A stretch of DNA of 61,192 bases from an uncultured Thermoplasmatales archaeon (lineage in GTDB: Archaea; Thermoplasmatota; E2; UBA202; DSCA01): NCBI GenBank assembly GCA_964514975.1, contig CAZESS010000011.1:1-61192 (forward strand), written 5' to 3'. Below, piece by piece: positions 27,432 through 35,190 of this stretch. The position numbers were made by a program, and so were the translations under genes. The notes beneath the pieces are model-generated. The model did no database searches, had not been told where the DNA came from, and saw only the letters and a program-made list of their open reading frames with translations. Position 1 is the first letter of the stretch. Every line of letters starts with the position of its first letter.

Positions 27432-28283
27432 ATGAACAAGAAACAAAAAGTCAAGGACGTCATGACCACCGAGACCATCACGGCGACGGTGCCGGGAAAC
27501 CGGGAGGACGTGCTCCGCCTTTTCGGGAAGCACGAGATAACCGGCATGCCCGTTGTGAAGGCCGGGACGAGCACCCTTGCCGGCATCGTCACCCGCAGCG
27601 ACCTGTTTCGCCACAACGAGGAGGAGCAGCTCGCGCTCATCATGAACGACCGCCCGCTGACCGTGGCGCCGGATGACACCATCGAGATGGCGGCGACCGT
27701 TTTGTACAGGGAGCGGGTGCACGGGCTGCCCGTGGTCGAGGACGGCGAGCTGCAGGGCATCATCGCGCCGTCGGACATCCTCCGTCTCATCAGGGCCTTC
27801 GACGGGGAACTCGTCGAGGAGTTCCTCTCACCTCTGTTCATCCCCATCTATCAGGAGACGCCATTGCCGGCGGTCATGCGGATTTTCAAGATCACCGACG
27901 TGGACGCGGTGCCGGTCATCGACGACGAGGGAGCGCTGGTGGGCATCGTCGGCGACGGCGACCTGTTCACTTTTTCGCACCTTGAGGAAAGCGTCGGGAA
28001 ATCCGAGATGGGTCTCGGCGAGGACGAGGACATGTGGAGCTGGGAGGGCATCCGTGACGTCATGCGCCTCTACTATGAGACCTCGAAGATAGAGCTCCCG
28101 CCGATCCCGGTGAAAGAGGTCATGGTAACGGACCTGTTCACGGTGTTCAGGAAAACCCCGATATCCGGGGTGGCGGAAAAAATGCTCACCCATCAGGTCA
28201 ACCAGCTGCCGGTCACCGATGACAGCGACGAGCTCGTGGGCATGGTCAGCGACATCGACCTCATGAAGGCAATTATTTCGTGA
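27432..28283 (+). CDS. Tandem CBS-domain protein (4 CBS)
   Basis: VKDVMT, GMPVV...GIVTRSD, GLPVV, AVPVID, QLPV...GMVSDID. Confidence 0.9.
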   Translation: MNKKQKVKDVMTTETITATVPGNREDVLRLFGKHEITGMPVVKAGTSTLAGIVTRSDLFRHNEEEQLALIMNDRPLTVAPDDTIEMAATVLYRERVHGLPVVEDGELQGIIAPSDILRLIRAFDGELVEEFLSPLFIPIYQETPLPAVMRIFKITDVDAVPVIDDEGALVGIVGDGDLFTFSHLEESVGKSEMGLGEDEDMWSWEGIRDVMRLYYETSKIELPPIPVKEVMVTDLFTVFRKTPISGVAEKMLTHQVNQLPVTDDSDELVGMVSDIDLMKAIIS

Positions 28284-29920
28284 ATGACATGGACATATAC
28301 AGCGAGATAGTGTCCCTGGCGAAACGACGCGGCTTTTTTTATCCCTCCTATGACATCTACGGCGGCGAAGCCGGCTTTTATGATTATGGACCGCTGGGCA
28401 CCCGGCTGAAACACCAGGTGGAAGAAAAATGGCGCTCGTTTTACGTCCTCCGCGAGAGATGCATGGAGATTTCGACGCCGGCGATCACCCCCTACGCGGT
28501 GTTCAAGGCCTCCGGCCACGTGGACAAGTTCCTGGACGTCGTGCTCACCTGCTCCAAATGTGGCTTCTCCGCCAAGGAGGAAAACGTCGACGAGGGCTCC
28601 CGCTCAAGCCTGGAATGTCCCGAGTGCGGCGGGCGGCTGCAACGCGGCCACATGAACCTGATGTTCGAGACCGAGACCGGCGCCCGAGACCGGCGGACGG
28701 CGTTCCTGCGGCCTGAGACGGCGCAGGGCATCTTCGTCGACTTTCCCTTCCTTTACCAGTTTTCACGGAAACAGCTTCCCATGGGCGTCGTCCAGGTGGG
28801 GAAGGGTTTCCGCAACGAGGTCTCCCCACGGCAGAGCCTCTACCGGATGCGAGAGTTCGCCATGGCCGAAGCAGAGATATTTTTCGACCCGGAGGACAAG
28901 ACACATCCCCGCTTCGACGAGGTGGCCGATGACACGCTGACGGTCATCCCGGCGGACGCCGACGAACAAATGGCGACGGTCGGATCGCTCCTTGACAGCG
29001 GCATCATCGGCAACCAGGCGCTCGCCTACTATATCGCGCTGACCAGGCGGTTTCTGCTGGCGGTGGGCATCGCCGACCAAAAGCTGCGGTTCCGGCAGCA
29101 TGAGCCCGACGAGATGGCTCATTATGCCAGCGACTGCTGGGACGCCGAGATCCTGACGGCGCTGGGCTGGATCGAATGCGTGGGCATCGCAGACCGCACC
29201 GCATATGATCTCAGCGCACACATGGAGGCCACGGGCGAGGACATGACCGCGTTCCGCAGGTATGATACGGCGCGGCAGGAGAAACGGCGTCGCATCATCC
29301 CTGACATGGCGAAGCTGGGCCCCGCGTTCAAGGAACAGGCTAAGGAGATCGCCGACCTGCTGGCAGACATGGAGCCGCCGGAGAACGCTGATGACGGCCT
29401 CGTGGTGCAGGTGGACAACGAGGACGTCGCCATCGACCCCGGGCTGTATGACGTCGTGGAGGAGGAGATAACGATAACGGGCGAAAACGTCATCCCGCAC
29501 GTGGTGGAGCCCTCCTACGGCATCGACCGCATCCTGTACAGCATCCTGGAGCACAGCTACTGCCGGAGTGAAAAAGAAGGCGAAAGCTATGTCCGGCTGG
29601 AGCTGCCATCCGACATCGCGCCCGTCACGGCCGGGGTGTTCCCCCTGGTCAGCAAGAACGGGCTATCCGACATTGCCCGGGACATCGCCGACGAGCTGCG
29701 AACCCAGGGCCTGCTGACCTATTACGACGAGGGCGGCAGCATCGGCCGGCGGTATGCACGGATGGACGAAATCGGGACGCCTTTTTGTGTCACGGTTGAC
29801 TTCGACACCCTTGAAGATGACACGGTGACGGTCCGCTTCCGGGACACTACGGAGCAGGTCCGTGTGCTCCGCAATGAGCTCGCCCGATGGCTGCGGGAAC
29901 GGGTAGAGCTAGAGCGGTAA
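28280..29920 (+). CDS. glyS: Glycine--tRNA ligase (alpha2 type)
   Basis: KRRGF, LRPETAQG, FRNEVSPR, EMAHYA, VEPSYGIDR, GSIGRRYARMDEIG. Confidence 0.97.
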   Translation: MNDMDIYSEIVSLAKRRGFFYPSYDIYGGEAGFYDYGPLGTRLKHQVEEKWRSFYVLRERCMEISTPAITPYAVFKASGHVDKFLDVVLTCSKCGFSAKEENVDEGSRSSLECPECGGRLQRGHMNLMFETETGARDRRTAFLRPETAQGIFVDFPFLYQFSRKQLPMGVVQVGKGFRNEVSPRQSLYRMREFAMAEAEIFFDPEDKTHPRFDEVADDTLTVIPADADEQMATVGSLLDSGIIGNQALAYYIALTRRFLLAVGIADQKLRFRQHEPDEMAHYASDCWDAEILTALGWIECVGIADRTAYDLSAHMEATGEDMTAFRRYDTARQEKRRRIIPDMAKLGPAFKEQAKEIADLLADMEPPENADDGLVVQVDNEDVAIDPGLYDVVEEEITITGENVIPHVVEPSYGIDRILYSILEHSYCRSEKEGESYVRLELPSDIAPVTAGVFPLVSKNGLSDIARDIADELRTQGLLTYYDEGGSIGRRYARMDEIGTPFCVTVDFDTLEDDTVTVRFRDTTEQVRVLRNELARWLRERVELER

Positions 29921-30039
29921 GCATCCTCTGTGACAAGGTATCTGGCAGTTCTTTTACAATGGTGTAACTTCCACATTTAGTTTCATATTTTTTCTAACTG
30001 TTCTAAAAAAATTATTTATCTAGTGCTTGCATTAGGATA

Positions 30040-30984
30040 GTGATGCTGCAGAAAAGGATTGTAGACGGGCACATCAGCGAAGAAGGCCCTAAAATTAACG
30101 AGGAAATGCTACAGAAAAAAATCCAGAAATATACAGATATATATCTTAAAAAGCTGCCCGATGACGCCATGCAGATACGACCCCGCTCAATAACCTGCCT
30201 GCCGTACGATGTCGGTTTTGATGATGTGATAGGCATCGAAGACGGCAAACAAATTATTGCTGACCTTCTTGACCTTCTCCAAGATGAGACAGCCATCCAG
30301 AAATACCATATCGAACTGCCATCGGGCATCCTACTGCATGGCCCTCCTGGCTGCGGTAAAACACATTTCGCCCGAGCCATAGCGGGTACATGGCATGTTC
30401 CACTGATCCGTATATCACCCGCAGACCTTATGAGCCGGTGGTCAGGCGAAACCGAGAGCAACATCCGGCAACTCTTCATTTACGCACGATACCTCTCCCC
30501 CTGCGTCCTCTTCCTCGACGAACTCGACGGACTTGGACGTAGCAGAAGCAACGTCAGAACCCGCTTTGAACAGATGGACTTGAGCCAGTTGCTCATCGGC
30601 GTGGAAAAAACGCATGGATGCCGACCTCCGGTTCTCATGCTTGGCGCTACGAACCGTCTCGATGACATAGACCCTGCATTGCGGAGGCCGGGTCGGTTTA
30701 CCAGAGAAATCTATGTCGGGCCGCCGAACCAATCACAGCGAGAAGCGCTACTACGCCACTATACCCGAAACAGACCGATTTCACCATCCGTTGACTATAC
30801 GGAGTTGGCAGAGCAGACCACAAACATGACCGGGGCAGACATCAAGCAGCTGTGCAACGATGCGGCCCGGCATGCATGGCGCAGGGCCAAACGAGAGGGT
30901 GGAAATGATGCTATAGGATTAGAAGATTTTACCGCAGTATTGCAACAGAATGATCAGCAAAAAACCTGCCTGATATATCAGTGA
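30040..30984 (+). CDS. Single-domain classical-clade AAA+ ATPase
   Basis: Walker A GPPGCGKT, pore loop SRWSGE, Walker [27 protein letters not shown], lid TGADI. Confidence 0.9.
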   Translation: MMLQKRIVDGHISEEGPKINEEMLQKKIQKYTDIYLKKLPDDAMQIRPRSITCLPYDVGFDDVIGIEDGKQIIADLLDLLQDETAIQKYHIELPSGILLHGPPGCGKTHFARAIAGTWHVPLIRISPADLMSRWSGETESNIRQLFIYARYLSPCVLFLDELDGLGRSRSNVRTRFEQMDLSQLLIGVEKTHGCRPPVLMLGATNRLDDIDPALRRPGRFTREIYVGPPNQSQREALLRHYTRNRPISPSVDYTELAEQTTNMTGADIKQLCNDAARHAWRRAKREGGNDAIGLEDFTAVLQQNDQQKTCLIYQ

Positions 30985-30993
30985 GGAATATAT

Positions 30994-31626
30994 ATGACAG
31001 TGATATTTAGCACCCTTGGATTTACGCCTGACGCCCTGTTACCTTTGATAACCCATTTTCCTGACGTGGAAAAGGTCGTGTTTTATTATTCGACGGAGAA
31101 GGAAGAGCGGGTGGTCAAAGCCAAGGAAGAAGTCATCAAGGTATGTGTGTCGCTTACCATCCCCGTTGAAGCAAATGAACTGGAAAACTATGTGGACATC
31201 ATCCCCATGATAAAACGGATGCGGGACGACCTACAGCAGTACGAGAGAGACAATGTGGTGTTCAACATCACGGGTGGAACGAAGGCCATGGCGGGGGCAG
31301 CCATTATTACGAGCATTTTGGAAGGCATACAGGTGGTGTTCAACGACTGGGAAAACAATAGAGTAGTGGAATATCCGGTGTTACGGATGCGGTATGAGGA
31401 TACGCTCACCAAGCGCCAAAAAGAAATCCTCAAATATATTCATCGCAAGGATGAGTGTAAATTCTCTGAAGTTGTCAAGAGTATGGGGGTGTCGAAGTCA
31501 ACGATTTCACATCATATCAGAGAACTTGAGGAGAAAGGGTTTATCGAGCGAAAGGCGATTAAAGAAGATAAACGAGAGCAGATTATCAGAGCGAAAGAAG
31601 TAGCAGAACTCGTAATAAACCGTTAG
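30994..31626 (+). CDS. CARF-wHTH transcriptional regulator (Csa3-like)
   Basis: Rossmann-like start VIFSTLGF, CARF motif FNITGGTK, C-terminal LTKRQKEIL...SKSTISHHIRELEEKGFI winged HTH. Confidence 0.85.
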   Translation: MTVIFSTLGFTPDALLPLITHFPDVEKVVFYYSTEKEERVVKAKEEVIKVCVSLTIPVEANELENYVDIIPMIKRMRDDLQQYERDNVVFNITGGTKAMAGAAIITSILEGIQVVFNDWENNRVVEYPVLRMRYEDTLTKRQKEILKYIHRKDECKFSEVVKSMGVSKSTISHHIRELEEKGFIERKAIKEDKREQIIRAKEVAELVINR

Positions 31627-31663
31627 ATATATAGCATAAGAATGACATTATGATTTGGTGAAT

Positions 31664-32422
31664 ATGATGGCTGGATGCGGTAACAATAAAAAATTTCAAG
31701 ATTGGTCAAGCATTGGCCAGTTGAAGCAAAACTTAAATCTCTCTCTTTCAGAACTACAGTTAGAGATTGATAGCACAGAGCCGATATACTATTATGTTTC
31801 AACATCTGTTATTAGGAAACCAACTAATGGCCATAGTTTTCTGCATACAAGTTGTGGGCCTAACTTTGAGGGAGGAATTTTAACTAATTTTACGTGCAGG
31901 CGAGACATCAGAACGTGGAATGTTGATGGGGGATGGCATAACAAATGGATAGCTGGTGTCACGGGTGTAAATGGAGCAAGCGATGAAAATCCCAATAGGA
32001 GATATCTATTCTATCTCATGCAAGTTGCAGAAATATATCATTCACAGATGGAAATATGGAGAAAAGAAAGCAACATACTAACTCAAGAGGTTAAGCAAAT
32101 CAAAAATGCGACTAAAAACCCGTTCGGTGACATATTTCCTCCCCTTCCAAACGCAAGCGATGATGACCAATACTGTGTTGAAAGCTATCAAAAACCGATA
32201 TCCAATCATGTACACTATAAGGATAATAAAGGATGGATGAAAGATATTAACTATCCACCAAATGATAGTACAAAACAGCAAGTATATCTTGTGGGCCATC
32301 CAAAGAGGAGTTATTTATGGTCAAAACCACTCATTTATTTAGAACGTGAGCAAAACTGGAGAAATAGAACCAATGACAACATACAACATTTTCTTACACA
32401 ATTATCTTCTGAAACAAAATAA
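31664..32422 (+). CDS. Nmad2-like (nucleotide-modification-associated domain 2) protein
   Basis: GPNFEGGILTNFTCRRDIR, WIAGVTG, LFYLMQV resemble the recalled Nmad2 pattern (PN..G..TL.TC...IR, W..G, L.Y.M.V); not HMM-verified. Confidence 0.6.
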   Translation: MMAGCGNNKKFQDWSSIGQLKQNLNLSLSELQLEIDSTEPIYYYVSTSVIRKPTNGHSFLHTSCGPNFEGGILTNFTCRRDIRTWNVDGGWHNKWIAGVTGVNGASDENPNRRYLFYLMQVAEIYHSQMEIWRKESNILTQEVKQIKNATKNPFGDIFPPLPNASDDDQYCVESYQKPISNHVHYKDNKGWMKDINYPPNDSTKQQVYLVGHPKRSYLWSKPLIYLEREQNWRNRTNDNIQHFLTQLSSETK

Positions 32423-32562
32423 ACGATAAAGAATATCGCATCCTTTGGTCTTGAATTAAAGAGGAGTATTCTTACCCTCAAATTTAGAAAACTGGGTATA
32501 TAGGGAAAGAAGTTGAGGAATTTCCGTAAACAATAAGGAGCAGATTTACAATCACTGGTACC

Positions 32563-33480
32563 ATGCCGAGCTATCTAATTCCATACCAAGACCCACGTAA
32601 GATCGAGGGGCATGAAGACCCCATGTTTGAGGAATACACCTATGGAGATATAGGCAGCAGAGGAAAAAAGTTGCTCAATAATGTCGATAAGGGTGACTAT
32701 CTGTTTTTCCACACCACCCAGAAAGGCAAGCGAGTTCTTACCTCATATTTTGTTGTCGAGAAAACAATGCCTGCAGACGAAGCCAAGCAAAACAAACTGA
32801 TCACGATGAAATACAAAAACCCACATCTGGATAGGGAAGAGATCTACGAGCACGACACACTCGCATTCGGCAACCCCATATTCTCCAACAACCTCAAAAG
32901 ACCGCTCGAACTCACCAAGGAACTATTACAGCAATTGTCCATAAAAACAACCTTCAATCGCACCCAAACAGAGCTCGGGCAAATATCATCAACGCTCCGC
33001 AGCTGGAGAGAACTGGGTGACGACGACATCGAATTTTTATTAAATAAAATAGCGGAGATAGAGGAACGGAGTTTTCTCCGCCACACACCCATATCCACGA
33101 AGGAAATAGAGCAACTTCGAGAAGAAGACATCGAAAACTTCATCGAAGAAAATCCAAAGGTTCTGGGAAACGATATCCAGCTACTTGAACGACAATATAC
33201 ACTGCAATCAGACCACCGAATTGACCTATTGTGCAAAGATAACAACGGCTACGTCGTAGTGGAGATAAAACTGGGTTCCATTGGCAGAGACGCCTACAAA
33301 CAAGTCAGGAAATACATGAAACAACTAAAAAAAGAAGAAGGCGAACAGGTGAGAGGCATCCTCGTATGCGCTGACATCCTCCCAGTTTTTGAAGACTATC
33401 TCATCAAACGAATAAACGAAGGAAAAGTCGAAGTCTACCTATACTCATGGAAATTTACCCTAAATCCGTTCAGGCCATAG
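32563..33480 (+). CDS. Nmad3-like domain fused to NucS-like PD-(D/E)XK endonuclease
   Basis: N-terminal HEDPMFEEYTYGD...KGDYLFF (Nmad3-like); C-terminal EEDIENFIEENP, RIDLLCKD, VVVEIK, QVRKY, VRGILV (NucS-type C-terminal nuclease). Confidence 0.75.
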   Translation: MPSYLIPYQDPRKIEGHEDPMFEEYTYGDIGSRGKKLLNNVDKGDYLFFHTTQKGKRVLTSYFVVEKTMPADEAKQNKLITMKYKNPHLDREEIYEHDTLAFGNPIFSNNLKRPLELTKELLQQLSIKTTFNRTQTELGQISSTLRSWRELGDDDIEFLLNKIAEIEERSFLRHTPISTKEIEQLREEDIENFIEENPKVLGNDIQLLERQYTLQSDHRIDLLCKDNNGYVVVEIKLGSIGRDAYKQVRKYMKQLKKEEGEQVRGILVCADILPVFEDYLIKRINEGKVEVYLYSWKFTLNPFRP

Positions 33481-33579
33481 CCAACTGATCCCGATAATCC
33501 GCTAGATCCCGTAGTCCTGATTGTTAATTAGTTAGATAGGGCTACGTAGAGAAAAATAGGGAGGAAAAAGGGAAAGCGG

Positions 33580-35190
33580 TTAGCTGCTCTTTTTCTGGCG
33601 TTCTCGCTTGCGGAGCTCAACCCGGCGTATTTTGCCGCTGATGGTCTTGGGGAGCTCGTCGACGAACTCTATCTCCCGCGGGTACTTGTAGGGCGCCGTC
33701 TCCTTTTTGACGAATGTCTGGAGCTCCGTGACGAGGTCGTCGCTGGGCTCATGCTGCTTGGCGAGGACGACATACGCCTTGACGATGTTGCCCCGTATCT
33801 CGTGCGGCGAGGCAACGACGGCTGCTTCCATCACGGCGGGATGCTTGACCAGCGCGTCCTCGACCTCGAAGGGACCGATGCGGTAGCCCGACGCTTTTAT
33901 GACATCGTCGGCGCGTCCCTCGAACCAGAAGTAGCCGTCCTCATCTTTTTTGGCGAGGTCGCCGGTCAGATACCAGCCGTTGACCGCCAGGTCATCCAGG
34001 TCTTCGCCGTTCCAGTAGCCCACCATCAGGCCGGGATGGTCGATGGGGACCGCTATCTGACCTATCTTGCCCGGAGGCAGCTCGTTGCCGTCTTCGTCGA
34101 TGATGGTGGCGCCTGAGCCGGGCATCGGCTTGCCCATGGAGCCGTATCTGACATCGATGCCGTGATAGTTGCAGACCAGGCCCGAGCTCTCCGTCTGCCC
34201 GTAGCCGTCATGTATCTGCAGGTCATATGCCCGCTTGAAGCGGTCGATGACCTCGCGGTTGAGTGCCTCGCCGGCGCTCAGGAACTTGGTCATCTCGGAC
34301 AGGTCGTATTCCTCGAGATCCTCCTGGGCCCACATGCGGTACTCGGTCGGGGTGGCGCAGAGCTTGTTGACCCCGTATTTTTCCATGAGACGGAGGAATT
34401 TCTGTGGGTCGAACCGGCCCCGATAGGTGACCTGTGATGCGCCGACGGTGACGGCAACGCCGAGCGGGCTCCAGAACCATTTCGCCCAGCCGGGAGAGGT
34501 GGTCGACCACAGCACCTCGTCAGGATGCGCGTCCCACCAGTACCGGGCGTTGGTTTTCAGGAAGCAGTACATCCATTTGTGGTCGTGGAGCACGCCCTTG
34601 GGGTCGCCCGTGGTTCCCGAGGTGTAGTTGATGGTCATGATGTCCTCGGCGTTGACGTCCTGCGGCTCGAGGTCTGCTGAGGCGTCGCTGACGAGGTCGT
34701 CGTAGCGCTGCCAGCCGTCACGTTCGCCGCCGACGATGATATAGTTTTTGAGCGGCGTTTTGTCGCGGACTTTGTCGACGTGCTCGGCGGCTGATGGCGA
34801 TGCGACGATGGTGGTCGCCTCGCAGTTGGTTGAACGGTATTCGATGTTTTTCTCCCGGAGCATCTCGGGGCAGGGCACGATGATGGCGCCTATCTTGAAT
34901 GCGCCGATCTGGGTGTAGAAGACCTCGGGCAGGCGGGGAAGCACGACCATGATGCGGTCGCCTTTTTCGACGCCCATCTTGAGGAGGGCGTTGGCCAGGC
35001 GGTTGGCCTCGTCGCGGAGCTCCCGGTAGGTGATGGCGTGCTCGTTTCCCTGGTCGTTCTCCCAGTATATTGCTACCTTGTCCGGGTTTTCTGCATGCTC
35101 GTCCACCGCCTTGGCGATGGTGTAATCCGCTGGAATATCCCATTCGAAATCCTGCATCCATTGTTCATAGTCGTCCATGGCTGTCACCAT
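33580..35190 (-). CDS. Short/medium-chain acyl-CoA synthetase (AMP-forming)
   Basis: YTSGTTGDPKG, YGQTE, YLTGD, GRADDVIK, PKTISGKIRR; start may be MDDY at 35178. Confidence 0.93.
   Translation of the reverse strand: MVTAMDDYEQWMQDFEWDIPADYTIAKAVDEHAENPDKVAIYWENDQGNEHAITYRELRDEANRLANALLKMGVEKGDRIMVVLPRLPEVFYTQIGAFKIGAIIVPCPEMLREKNIEYRSTNCEATTIVASPSAAEHVDKVRDKTPLKNYIIVGGERDGWQRYDDLVSDASADLEPQDVNAEDIMTINYTSGTTGDPKGVLHDHKWMYCFLKTNARYWWDAHPDEVLWSTTSPGWAKWFWSPLGVAVTVGASQVTYRGRFDPQKFLRLMEKYGVNKLCATPTEYRMWAQEDLEEYDLSEMTKFLSAGEALNREVIDRFKRAYDLQIHDGYGQTESSGLVCNYHGIDVRYGSMGKPMPGSGATIIDEDGNELPPGKIGQIAVPIDHPGLMVGYWNGEDLDDLAVNGWYLTGDLAKKDEDGYFWFEGRADDVIKASGYRIGPFEVEDALVKHPAVMEAAVVASPHEIRGNIVKAYVVLAKQHEPSDDLVTELQTFVKKETAPYKYPREIEFVDELPKTISGKIRRVELRKRERQKKSS

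Follow-up and report, generated by a model that had tools for sequence, protein, structure and literature searches.

An AT-rich islet of about 3.6 kb in the chromosome of an uncultured Thermoplasmatales archaeon carries four genes, here called g1 to g4, the last two of which are predicted to form a module that cuts base-modified DNA. The islet was analysed within a window of 61,192 nucleotides (nt), by which we mean the whole stretch of DNA under study (GenBank assembly GCA_964514975.1, contig CAZESS010000011.1, forward strand), where the four co-oriented open reading frames (ORFs) occupy the plus strand between glyS and a gene for an AMP-binding acyl-CoA synthetase (window 29921-33540). An original prediction, made from the letters of the sequence, had read these genes, an AAA+ ATPase, a CARF-winged helix-turn-helix (wHTH) protein, an Nmad2-like protein and an Nmad3-like/NucS nuclease, as a single signal-regulated anti-virus system that recognises and cuts base-modified viral DNA. 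The explanation that we favour, with moderate confidence, is a horizontally acquired composite islet in which g3 and g4 make up the putative DNA-cutting module and g1 and g2 are not conserved partners of it. What stands of the earlier idea includes the predicted reader and nuclease architecture of g4, with its intact residues; the description of a modified-DNA nuclease module as one four-gene system is not supported. Bacterial and archaeal viruses shield their DNA with elaborate base modifications, and enzymes that read such marks are both a layer of defence and tools for mapping modified bases. The features of the islet are these:

29961 to 33545, approximate boundaries: inserted AT-rich islet, placed by spacer similarity to same-genus relatives, the drop in GC content, empty sites and joining contigs.
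30040 to 30984, plus strand: g1, 314 amino acids (aa), a single-domain classic AAA+ ATPase.
30994 to 31626, plus strand: g2, 210 aa, a Csa3-like CARF and winged-helix regulator.
31655 to 32422, plus strand: g3, 255 aa, of the Nmad2 family; the database form begins at residue 5, position 31667.
32477 to 32562, plus strand: upstream region of g4, common to a second g4 copy on contig C27; a promoter-like stretch travelling with the gene.
32563 to 33480, plus strand: g4, 305 aa, an Nmad3 core with a NucS-type PD-(D/E)XK nuclease.
32563 to 33054, plus strand: N-terminal domain of g4, residues 1-164, Nmad3 core with an EVE/ASCH/YTH-like PUA fold; predicted modified-base reader.
33118 to 33453, plus strand: C-terminal domain of g4, residues 186-297, NucS/EndoMS-type PD-(D/E)XK nuclease.

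The case for the module begins with g4, whose designation as an Nmad3-like/NucS protein was borne out in both halves. The Pfam Nmad3 model (PF18754) matched at 6.1e-9 (36.3 bits against a cut-off of 27) over profile positions 68-231 of 247 and a local Nmad3 hidden Markov model (HMM) over positions 67-160 of 238 only, and judged by these profile alignments g4 holds the Nmad3 core, not the full domain. The C-terminal half matched Pfam NucS_C at 1.2e-13, and no NucS_N domain was found in g4 by Pfam. In the structural model (predicted local distance difference test score, pLDDT, 88.4) g4 has two domains. Residues 186-297 were superposed by VIA-align on NucS from Pyrococcus abyssi (2vld) with a Z score of 16.8 and a root-mean-square deviation of 1.9 Å over 106 residues, at 28% identity. 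The catalytic motif D..ExK is intact, as E234, K236, Q247 and Y251 do not vary among 37 family members and D221 hardly does, and these positions align with the NucS active site. For residues 1-164, the same tool gave the EVE protein PH1033 (Z 11.1, 132 aligned residues), MJECL36 (10.8), ASCH (9.7) and YTH (9.6), while Foldseek returned THYN1 bound to 5-methylcytosine DNA (1.9e-4), MspJI (2.4e-4) and also the McrB N-domain. An invariant set of residues, H17, P20, T26, Y27, G28, F48, H50, N86, H88, F102 and G103, marks the reader in the same 37 family members.

A PUA-superfamily reader fused to a nuclease is the build of established Type IV enzymes, as passages on VcaM4I (EVE-HNH) and MspJI describe (Lutz et al. 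2019, PMC6765204; PMC7897488; PMC7641849), and this same fusion was found in g4, which on the evidence of its model has the architecture of a modification-dependent (Type IV) restriction enzyme. Like enzymes of the VcaM4I/MspJI type, g4 has a two-domain build with an EVE/YTH/ASCH-like reader and an intact nuclease site, and its family shares with them a patchy distribution and often defence-type surroundings; it differs in that its reader is an Nmad3 core and its nuclease of NucS type, and in that it is known here from sequence and a model. Searched by term, PMC6765204 and PMC7641849 gave no occurrence of 'NucS' or 'Nmad'. Set against NucS/EndoMS, the C-terminal domain has the same D..ExK, Q and Y residues in addition to the matches given above, but g4 as a whole, with no NucS_N match, scores 65.5 bits against the NucS equivalog NF003270, far under the cut-off of 216, and does not qualify as a full NucS/EndoMS; a true NucS is encoded elsewhere in the genome. 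In the mechanism that we propose, the N-terminal domain of g4 would flip out and inspect a chemically modified DNA base and the NucS-type domain would cut DNA bearing that mark, making g4 a Type IV-like modification-dependent restriction endonuclease against viruses with modified or hypermodified genomes.

A word-indexed search recovered 40 other clusters with the length and architecture of g4, at 36-57% identity, from archaea-like metagenome contigs and from Bacillales proteins named only 'endonuclease NucS domain-containing protein'. Ranging from archaea to Bacillales, this Nmad3-NucS family may be a new source of nucleases that depend on a modification, perhaps on thymidine hypermodifications, against which few enzymes of the kind are known.

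The assignment of g3 took a longer path. No family match of its own was found in Pfam (E<=1), PADLOC or PHROGs, NCBIfam gave a chance-level value of 0.1, and the Nmad2 model PF18753 returned nothing at E<=1 from the whole genome, g3 missing the gathering cut-off. An exhaustive phmmer search gave 405 relatives at E<=0.001, of which 317 reach E<=1e-10, and 79 of 81 sequences (g3 and 80 relatives) match PF18753 at E<=1, the best at 3.6e-11. In the ESM Atlas, 24 of 30 matches of g3 were Nmad2-bearing clusters, with Nmad2 called on just 22-26% of members. Because its relatives match Nmad2 though the Pfam model misses g3 itself, the gene is assigned to Nmad2 by descent, and the earlier Nmad2-like call is upheld in that form. 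From the g3 model (pLDDT 91.2, predicted template modelling score 0.89), a wide VIA search produced a uniform list of PUA-like types, namely YTH, EVE, ASCH, the McrB N-domain and VcaM4I, with a best Z of 5.3, below the tool's reliable level, and Foldseek against the PDB and viral models found nothing at E<=0.001. Since the weak fold matches all point to the same PUA-like types, g3 probably has a PUA-like fold, an assignment of low certainty. A profile-profile comparison of the g3 and g4 families was not significant (probability 0.26, E 0.23), and the short motif that they have in common, Y..P..H and G[DN]P..S, is a lead and no evidence of homology.

Residues P69, N70, C81, W98, K150, G158, Y178, H185, H187 and D197 are invariant in the g3 family, whose C-x-C and H-x-H pairs would be compatible with a metal site. 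C81, H185, H187, K150 and D197 could accommodate a small ligand or a metal as readily as a flipped base, and a preprint reports a PUA-domain defence module triggered by m6-dAMP (10.64898/2026.01.15.699771). On this basis the PUA-like domains of g3 and g4 could sense free modified nucleotides released in infection and unleash the nuclease in an abortive-infection manner. We consider this very unlikely, as the present data hold no direct sign of such sensing and the top folds of the g4 reader include the DNA-bound EVE and McrB-N readers, which fit the reading of DNA at least equally well. Where g4 reads and cuts modified DNA, as we prefer to think, g3 would be an accessory that recurs with Nmad3-type proteins, serving as a second reader or as a specificity partner, and may interact physically with g4.

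The pairing of the two families was then apparent in their neighbourhoods. The census of the g3 family took in 78 loci, all from genomes that represent a species; Planctomycetota, Chloroflexota and Verrucomicrobiota make up most of these and archaea a few. In 52 of the 78, by the local HMM, Nmad3 adjoins the Nmad2 gene on the same strand (46 downstream, 6 upstream), often with a 4-nt overlap, and this is the commonest context of g3 relatives. These Nmad3 neighbours are about 240 aa long and without a nuclease, and Pfam confirmed all 10 that were scanned. Among the 26 loci without Nmad3, the Nmad2 gene has less than 700 nt to one side of it in 11, and in the remainder Nmad2 stands alone among ordinary genes (SMC, NifS/NifU, QueA). 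The g4-family census took the best 80 of 214 confirmed metagenome loci, and there the commonest neighbour cluster is Nmad2 (8 loci; 6 directly adjacent on the same strand, in either order), with five members confirmed by Pfam at ~1e-50. These neighbours are of another branch than g3, the g3-family HMM reaching them at only 1e-6 to 1e-7, which indicates that the association of Nmad2 with Nmad3-type proteins is seen with two Nmad2 lineages.

By membership, with g3 in the Nmad2 family and g4 holding an Nmad3 core, the two genes resemble the Nmad2-Nmad3 gene pairs (PF18753, PF18754), which are mostly bacterial (Planctomycetota, Chloroflexota and others); they differ in that the Nmad3 of the pairs lacks a nuclease, whereas g4 keeps the middle of the profile and is fused to one. 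Nmad2 and Nmad3 are said to have been defined by the Aravind group, in work by Iyer and colleagues of 2013, from DNA base-modification neighbourhoods, and a recurring Nmad2 partner gene is, to our knowledge, no familiar feature of VcaM4I/MspJI-type enzymes. A limited literature search found no paper on Nmad2 or Nmad3 in the relevant sense, a search on which calling the fusion family undescribed rests, and no fold or function assignment for Nmad was found in the literature covered. The models would therefore give two orphan families a concrete and testable function, by way of a weak model for Nmad2 and an EVE/YTH-like reader model for Nmad3.

The other two genes of the islet do not share in this recurrence. 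A g1-like AAA+ gene was found in 1 of the 78 g3-family loci, about 4 kb off and not adjacent, and in none of the 80 g4-family loci, and g2-like CARF genes were absent from both sets (0/78 and 0/80). Relatives of g2 had no g1-like gene within 1.5 kb in any of 29 loci. Of the recurring co-occurrence expected of a four-gene system, the Nmad2/Nmad3-type pairing is present and the AAA+ and CARF components are missing, and the single system of the original prediction does not hold up, with g1-like and g2-like genes adjacent in none of the g3-family or g4-family loci.

Further genes were observed next to members of these families. On a contig of a Planctomicrobium metagenome-assembled genome (L041:1684-9581), a g3-family Nmad2 gene is directly preceded by a gene for a 325-aa NucS_C protein; a 1443-aa protein without a known family and a DEAD/ResIII helicase come next, and the locus may hold a further form of the Nmad module that bears a nuclease. 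Genes resembling PRiA4_ORF3 (a cluster in 5 loci; two members scanned and confirmed by Pfam) recur beside Nmad2-Nmad3 pairs (L042, L046, L038 and others), as do NOV_C-domain genes (a cluster in 4 loci; one of two scanned members matched), and one g4 relative (L134) has a PRiA4_ORF3 gene nearby.

A second copy of g4 lies on another contig of the same assembly (G000 contig C27, locus L011; positions 123-2006 together with the gene before it), with 96.7% DNA identity over window 32510-33461 and 98% identity in protein. Over its far half, C27 shows synteny with same-genus relatives (74-87% identity), which assigns the contig to the same organism. About 85 nt of upstream sequence is common to both copies apart from a 30-nt indel, and 5′ of the C27 copy g3 is replaced by a 259-aa gene that matches ADDT (4.2e-16) and aGPT-Pplase3 (3e-11), the contig starting 122 nt before it. 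The GC content at third codon positions (GC3) of this ADDT-like gene is 0.32, the same as that of g3 (0.33), and it is the only match to the ADDT model in the genome (C27:339-902). The common upstream region together with a different partner indicates that g4 acts as a cassette with an exchangeable upstream partner, and g4 would thus move with its own upstream region. This partner swap and the Nmad fold assignments are in our view the most interesting parts of the analysis. No ADDT-like gene was found in the 80 g4-family loci. Just 3′ of the g4 copy, in the AT-richer half of C27, a 2491-aa ORF (C27:3840-11315, L011) with beta-helix/NosD, PKD and Ig-like domains is a probable giant surface protein.

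PMC8989533 and PMC5889632 describe enzymes of the ADDT/aGPT-Pplase type as transferases of phage thymidine hypermodification. The DefensePredictor study, in the passages available, lists an NMAD domain in one validated system and both aGPT-Pplase and NMAD among predicted, unvalidated defence domains (PMC13092281). Its systems resemble ours in having the same domain families as g3/g4 and the C27 ADDT-like gene, and differ in being bacterial and in that those passages do not mention a NucS fusion; the comparison is one of domain names, and an overlap with the g4 family is possible.

These observations invite a bolder reading, which we regard as rather improbable: Nmad2 and Nmad3 would be a pair of PUA-like readers for hypermodified bases, Nmad3-NucS would be the cutting arm of an undescribed class of modification-dependent restriction with an exchangeable upstream slot, taken by Nmad2 or by an ADDT/aGPT-Pplase-like transferase, and in this islet the module would also have come under CARF-wHTH/AAA+ control. 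If true, such a slot would open the way to 'mark, then cut' or dual-reader attack on viruses whose thymines or cytosines are hidden. The same genes could also be leftovers of a mobile element's DNA-hypermodification or anti-restriction cassette with no part in host defence, given that Pfam names the Nmad and aGPT-Pplase/ADDT families for base-modification contexts, that ADDT-type enzymes act in phage thymidine hypermodification in the two sources just cited, and that g3 and the ADDT-like gene are equally extreme in their AT richness. However, the viral contig collection contained no relative of the g3 or g4 family, phage records gave no match to g3, a Pfam scan found no integrase, capsid or replication gene in the islet, the ORFs are intact and the catalytic site of g4 is conserved, and we hold such an origin to be highly improbable.

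The insertion of the islet is documented by comparison with relatives, which share the two flanking host genes outside it:

28280 to 29920, plus strand: glyS, glycyl-tRNA synthetase, 81-83% identity in same-genus relatives.
33580 to 35190, minus strand: AMP-binding acyl-CoA synthetase, 89-91% identity in same-genus relatives.

glyS was present in all 21 genomes searched, and the DNA 3′ of it was compared in 9 relatives. In all five with sequence there, three of the same genus and two of the same family, the site is empty, with glyS and the synthetase gene convergent direct neighbours 15-110 bp apart, as had been proposed for checking. None of g1-g4 had a match in the post-glyS DNA of the nine relatives. 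When the junctions were aligned to the glyS-synthetase spacer of same-genus relatives, similarity was lost near 29960 and regained near 33545. Contigs of two public metagenome runs (X1 and X2) join 29862/29907 to 33564/33578 with 60-105 other letters between; their 10-20% divergence from the window shows that they come from relatives with an empty site. In run X2, positions 30008-33521 are nearly uncovered, an observation used only alongside the contigs that join across the islet. The insertion is therefore real and more than an effect of composition, and the islet is foreign, horizontally acquired DNA. Neither a short-repeat scan nor the junction alignment revealed a target-site duplication or flanking repeat, nor were tRNA-type attachment sites found among the short repeats or in the alignment, no tRNA scan having been run. 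A bacterial-type promoter and terminator scan, a method unsuited to archaea, gave no excess over shuffles.

Composition agrees with this, and the four co-oriented genes in an AT-rich island after glyS were confirmed by ORF positions, GC and GC3. GC content is 0.35-0.55 over 29.8-33.6 kb against about 0.60 on either side, and genome-wide just 7.2% of 1928 1-kb windows fall below 45%. GC3 is 0.80 and 0.82 in the flanking genes and 0.54, 0.56, 0.33 and 0.51 in g1 to g4. The possibility of independent arrivals, which the original prediction had allowed for on grounds of uneven base composition, is borne out where g1 and g2 are set against g3-g4 and, to a degree, within the pair, where the GC3 of g3 and g4 differs.

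Some further features of the site were seen in the same data. Three of the nine relatives (G002:C2, G008:C3 and G009:C3; loci L170, L175 and L176) have contigs that end 120-650 nt past glyS, and in G006:C1 (L178) no synthetase gene lies within 5.5 kb of glyS, and the site may be variable in other lineages too. In run X1, summed contig depth over g1-g2 (window 30008-31513) is 30-51, about twice that of g3 (18.3) and the flanks (about 15), and one contig matches the window from 30503 on, its preceding 255 letters being GC-rich and unrelated. The X1 community may hold a variant of the g1-g2 part or a second context for it.

Given the predicted activity of g4, its surroundings in other genomes bear on whether the module would serve defence. 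From the g4-family loci, 129 of 161 neighbour representatives were submitted to Pfam, short or end-cut ones having been dropped by hand, along with four members of the top cluster. Defence-type neighbours comprise an HNH endonuclease (a cluster in 4 loci), AIPR, ApeA-HEPN, RT+HD-CE, T5orf172, N6 methylase/Eco57I, ThsB-TIR, PLD, AbiEi-NucS_C, HepT, integrase and transposase genes. The only plasmid match of g4, on Peribacillus simplex pSHB26, sits with MazG-like, HNH, RES-domain and deaminase-domain genes, two C5 cytosine methyltransferases and IS110.

Several points weigh against a g3-g4 defence module in a composite islet. Many g4-family neighbours are ordinary (tRNA synthetase, ribosomal proteins, PFK), and the many g3-family genes that stand alone in housekeeping surroundings indicate that the Nmad2 family is not defence-specific. 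With no adjacent Nmad2 in 72 of the 80 g4-family loci, g3 is dispensable for that family. The PUA-like fold of g3 stands on weak matches (Z 5.3, with Foldseek empty at E<=0.001), the g4 reader spans just part of the Nmad3 profile, the operon-like packing of g1, g2 and g3, 10 and 28 nt apart, speaks for a functional tie within the islet, and NucS itself is a repair enzyme. This last point leads to another explanation, in which g4, alone or together with g3, would be a nuclease of DNA repair or genome maintenance, a NucS-like cutter whose usual N-domain has given way to a domain that reads damaged or unusual bases. Two points are consistent with such a role: among solved structures, the nearest to the nuclease domain is that of the mismatch endonuclease NucS/EndoMS, and g4-family and g3-family neighbourhoods are partly housekeeping. 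On the other hand, the genome already has a complete NucS with NucS_N on contig C22, and no full-length g4 match was found in 40 other genomes searched, close relatives included, with weak NucS_C-type matches in 7. In addition, the DNA around g4 is foreign, the gene has been duplicated as a cassette, and its relatives are often found beside restriction, abortive-infection and mobile genes. A repair function therefore appears unlikely to us. The NucS on C22 is the genome's ordinary NucS, distinct from g4, and stands in a row with a LigT-like 2′-5′ RNA ligase and a CCA-adding enzyme (C22:9403-12158; L239:86-2841).

The proposal that all four genes form one signal-regulated anti-virus system, in which the CARF protein, on sensing a cyclic oligonucleotide, would activate the ATPase and an Nmad2/Nmad3-NucS effector, draws on the close arrangement of g1-g2-g3 (gaps of 10 and 28 nt) and the shared orientation of all four genes in one inserted islet, where g1-g2-g3 are probably co-transcribed. 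It also draws on the similar GC3 of g1, g2 and g4 (0.51-0.56) and on a resemblance of the g4 nuclease domain to that of the CARF nucleases Can2 and Card1 (Z 9.2-9.5). The CARF-wHTH call for g2 is itself sound: Pfam matched a Csa3_N CARF domain at 7e-9 and a MarR wHTH at 4.3e-14, the PADLOC CARF3 model PDLC01853 matched residues 1-208, the full length, at 7.6e-78, and the score against TIGR01884 (68.3 bits, cut-off 60.2) places g2 among proteins of Csa3-type CARF plus wHTH build. The signal for such a sensor is another matter. Cas10 (Cmr2, Csm1) and Cas1 models had no match in the 98.9%-complete assembly, although control genomes did match, and a SMODS match on contig C22, considered as a signal synthase, was rejected since it is the CCA-adding enzyme beside the true NucS and LigT. 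With no Cas10, Cas1 or true SMODS enzyme found in the genome, there is no visible cyclic-oligonucleotide source for the g2 CARF, and the claim of signal regulation is left unsupported. Nor was g2 linked to CRISPR-Cas or another cyclic-oligoadenylate source; it resembles the Csa3 regulators of CRISPR-Cas loci in its CARF and wHTH build, with a score above the TIGR01884 cut-off, and differs from them in belonging to a genome in which the Cmr2, Csm1 and Cas1 models detected no CRISPR-Cas genes.

A search of 400 other genomes of the phylum found g2 relatives in 29, at no more than 37% identity and none in the window's own family or order. Around 21 of these loci, 49 of 80 called ORFs were chosen by hand and scanned, and the neighbours proved mostly metabolic, with Cas6 beside one. 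Fused, longer forms of g2 were not found, which is weak evidence. Together with the absence of the four-gene combination from the 78 g3-family, 80 g4-family and 29 g2-relative loci, and with the occurrence of g4 on C27 with its own upstream region and without g1-g3, these results make the four-gene system quite unlikely. In the composite islet that we favour instead, g2 would most likely be a local transcription regulator and g1 a co-transferred ATPase, and any role of the two in the nuclease module would be specific to this islet. The negative result matters in its own right: an attractive four-gene 'system' drawn from one locus splits into separate modules once neighbours elsewhere are checked.

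The AAA+ call for g1 was correct (Pfam AAA PF00004 at 8.5e-36, AAA_lid_3 at 8e-12), and the translation shows a Walker A motif, GPPGCGKT, and a Walker B motif, LDELD. No ortholog of g1 was found among the 400 other genomes of the phylum; the closest matches there, at 39-41% identity, are AAA cores within open frames of long or intermediate length (397-1439 aa), which on the basis of NCBIfam matches we take as probable Cdc48- and PAN-type ATPases. The top PADLOC match of g1 is to the IetA models (3.5e-39), over the generic AAA core only. This core is what g1 has in common with IetAS, the pair of AAA+ ATPase IetA and protease IetS; g1 scores 131.6 bits against the IetA equivalog NF042959, far under the cut-off of 510, Pfam found no protease gene in the islet and no IetS protease domain in g2-g4, and the identification as IetA was rejected.

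Two minor observations concern g2. One is a short inverted sequence before the gene:

30970 to 30981, no strand assigned: 12-bp perfect palindrome, 13 nt 5′ of the g2 start codon; possible operator.

It occurs once in the window at 0 mismatches, and since 28 of 100 shuffles gave at least 2 matches at no more than 2 mismatches, it was set aside as a remarkable signal, having no statistical significance. The other is that metallo-beta-lactamase-fold proteins of about 460-480 aa recur beside g2 relatives at loci L186, L198 and L199, and these may be the usual partner of g2's regulator subfamily.

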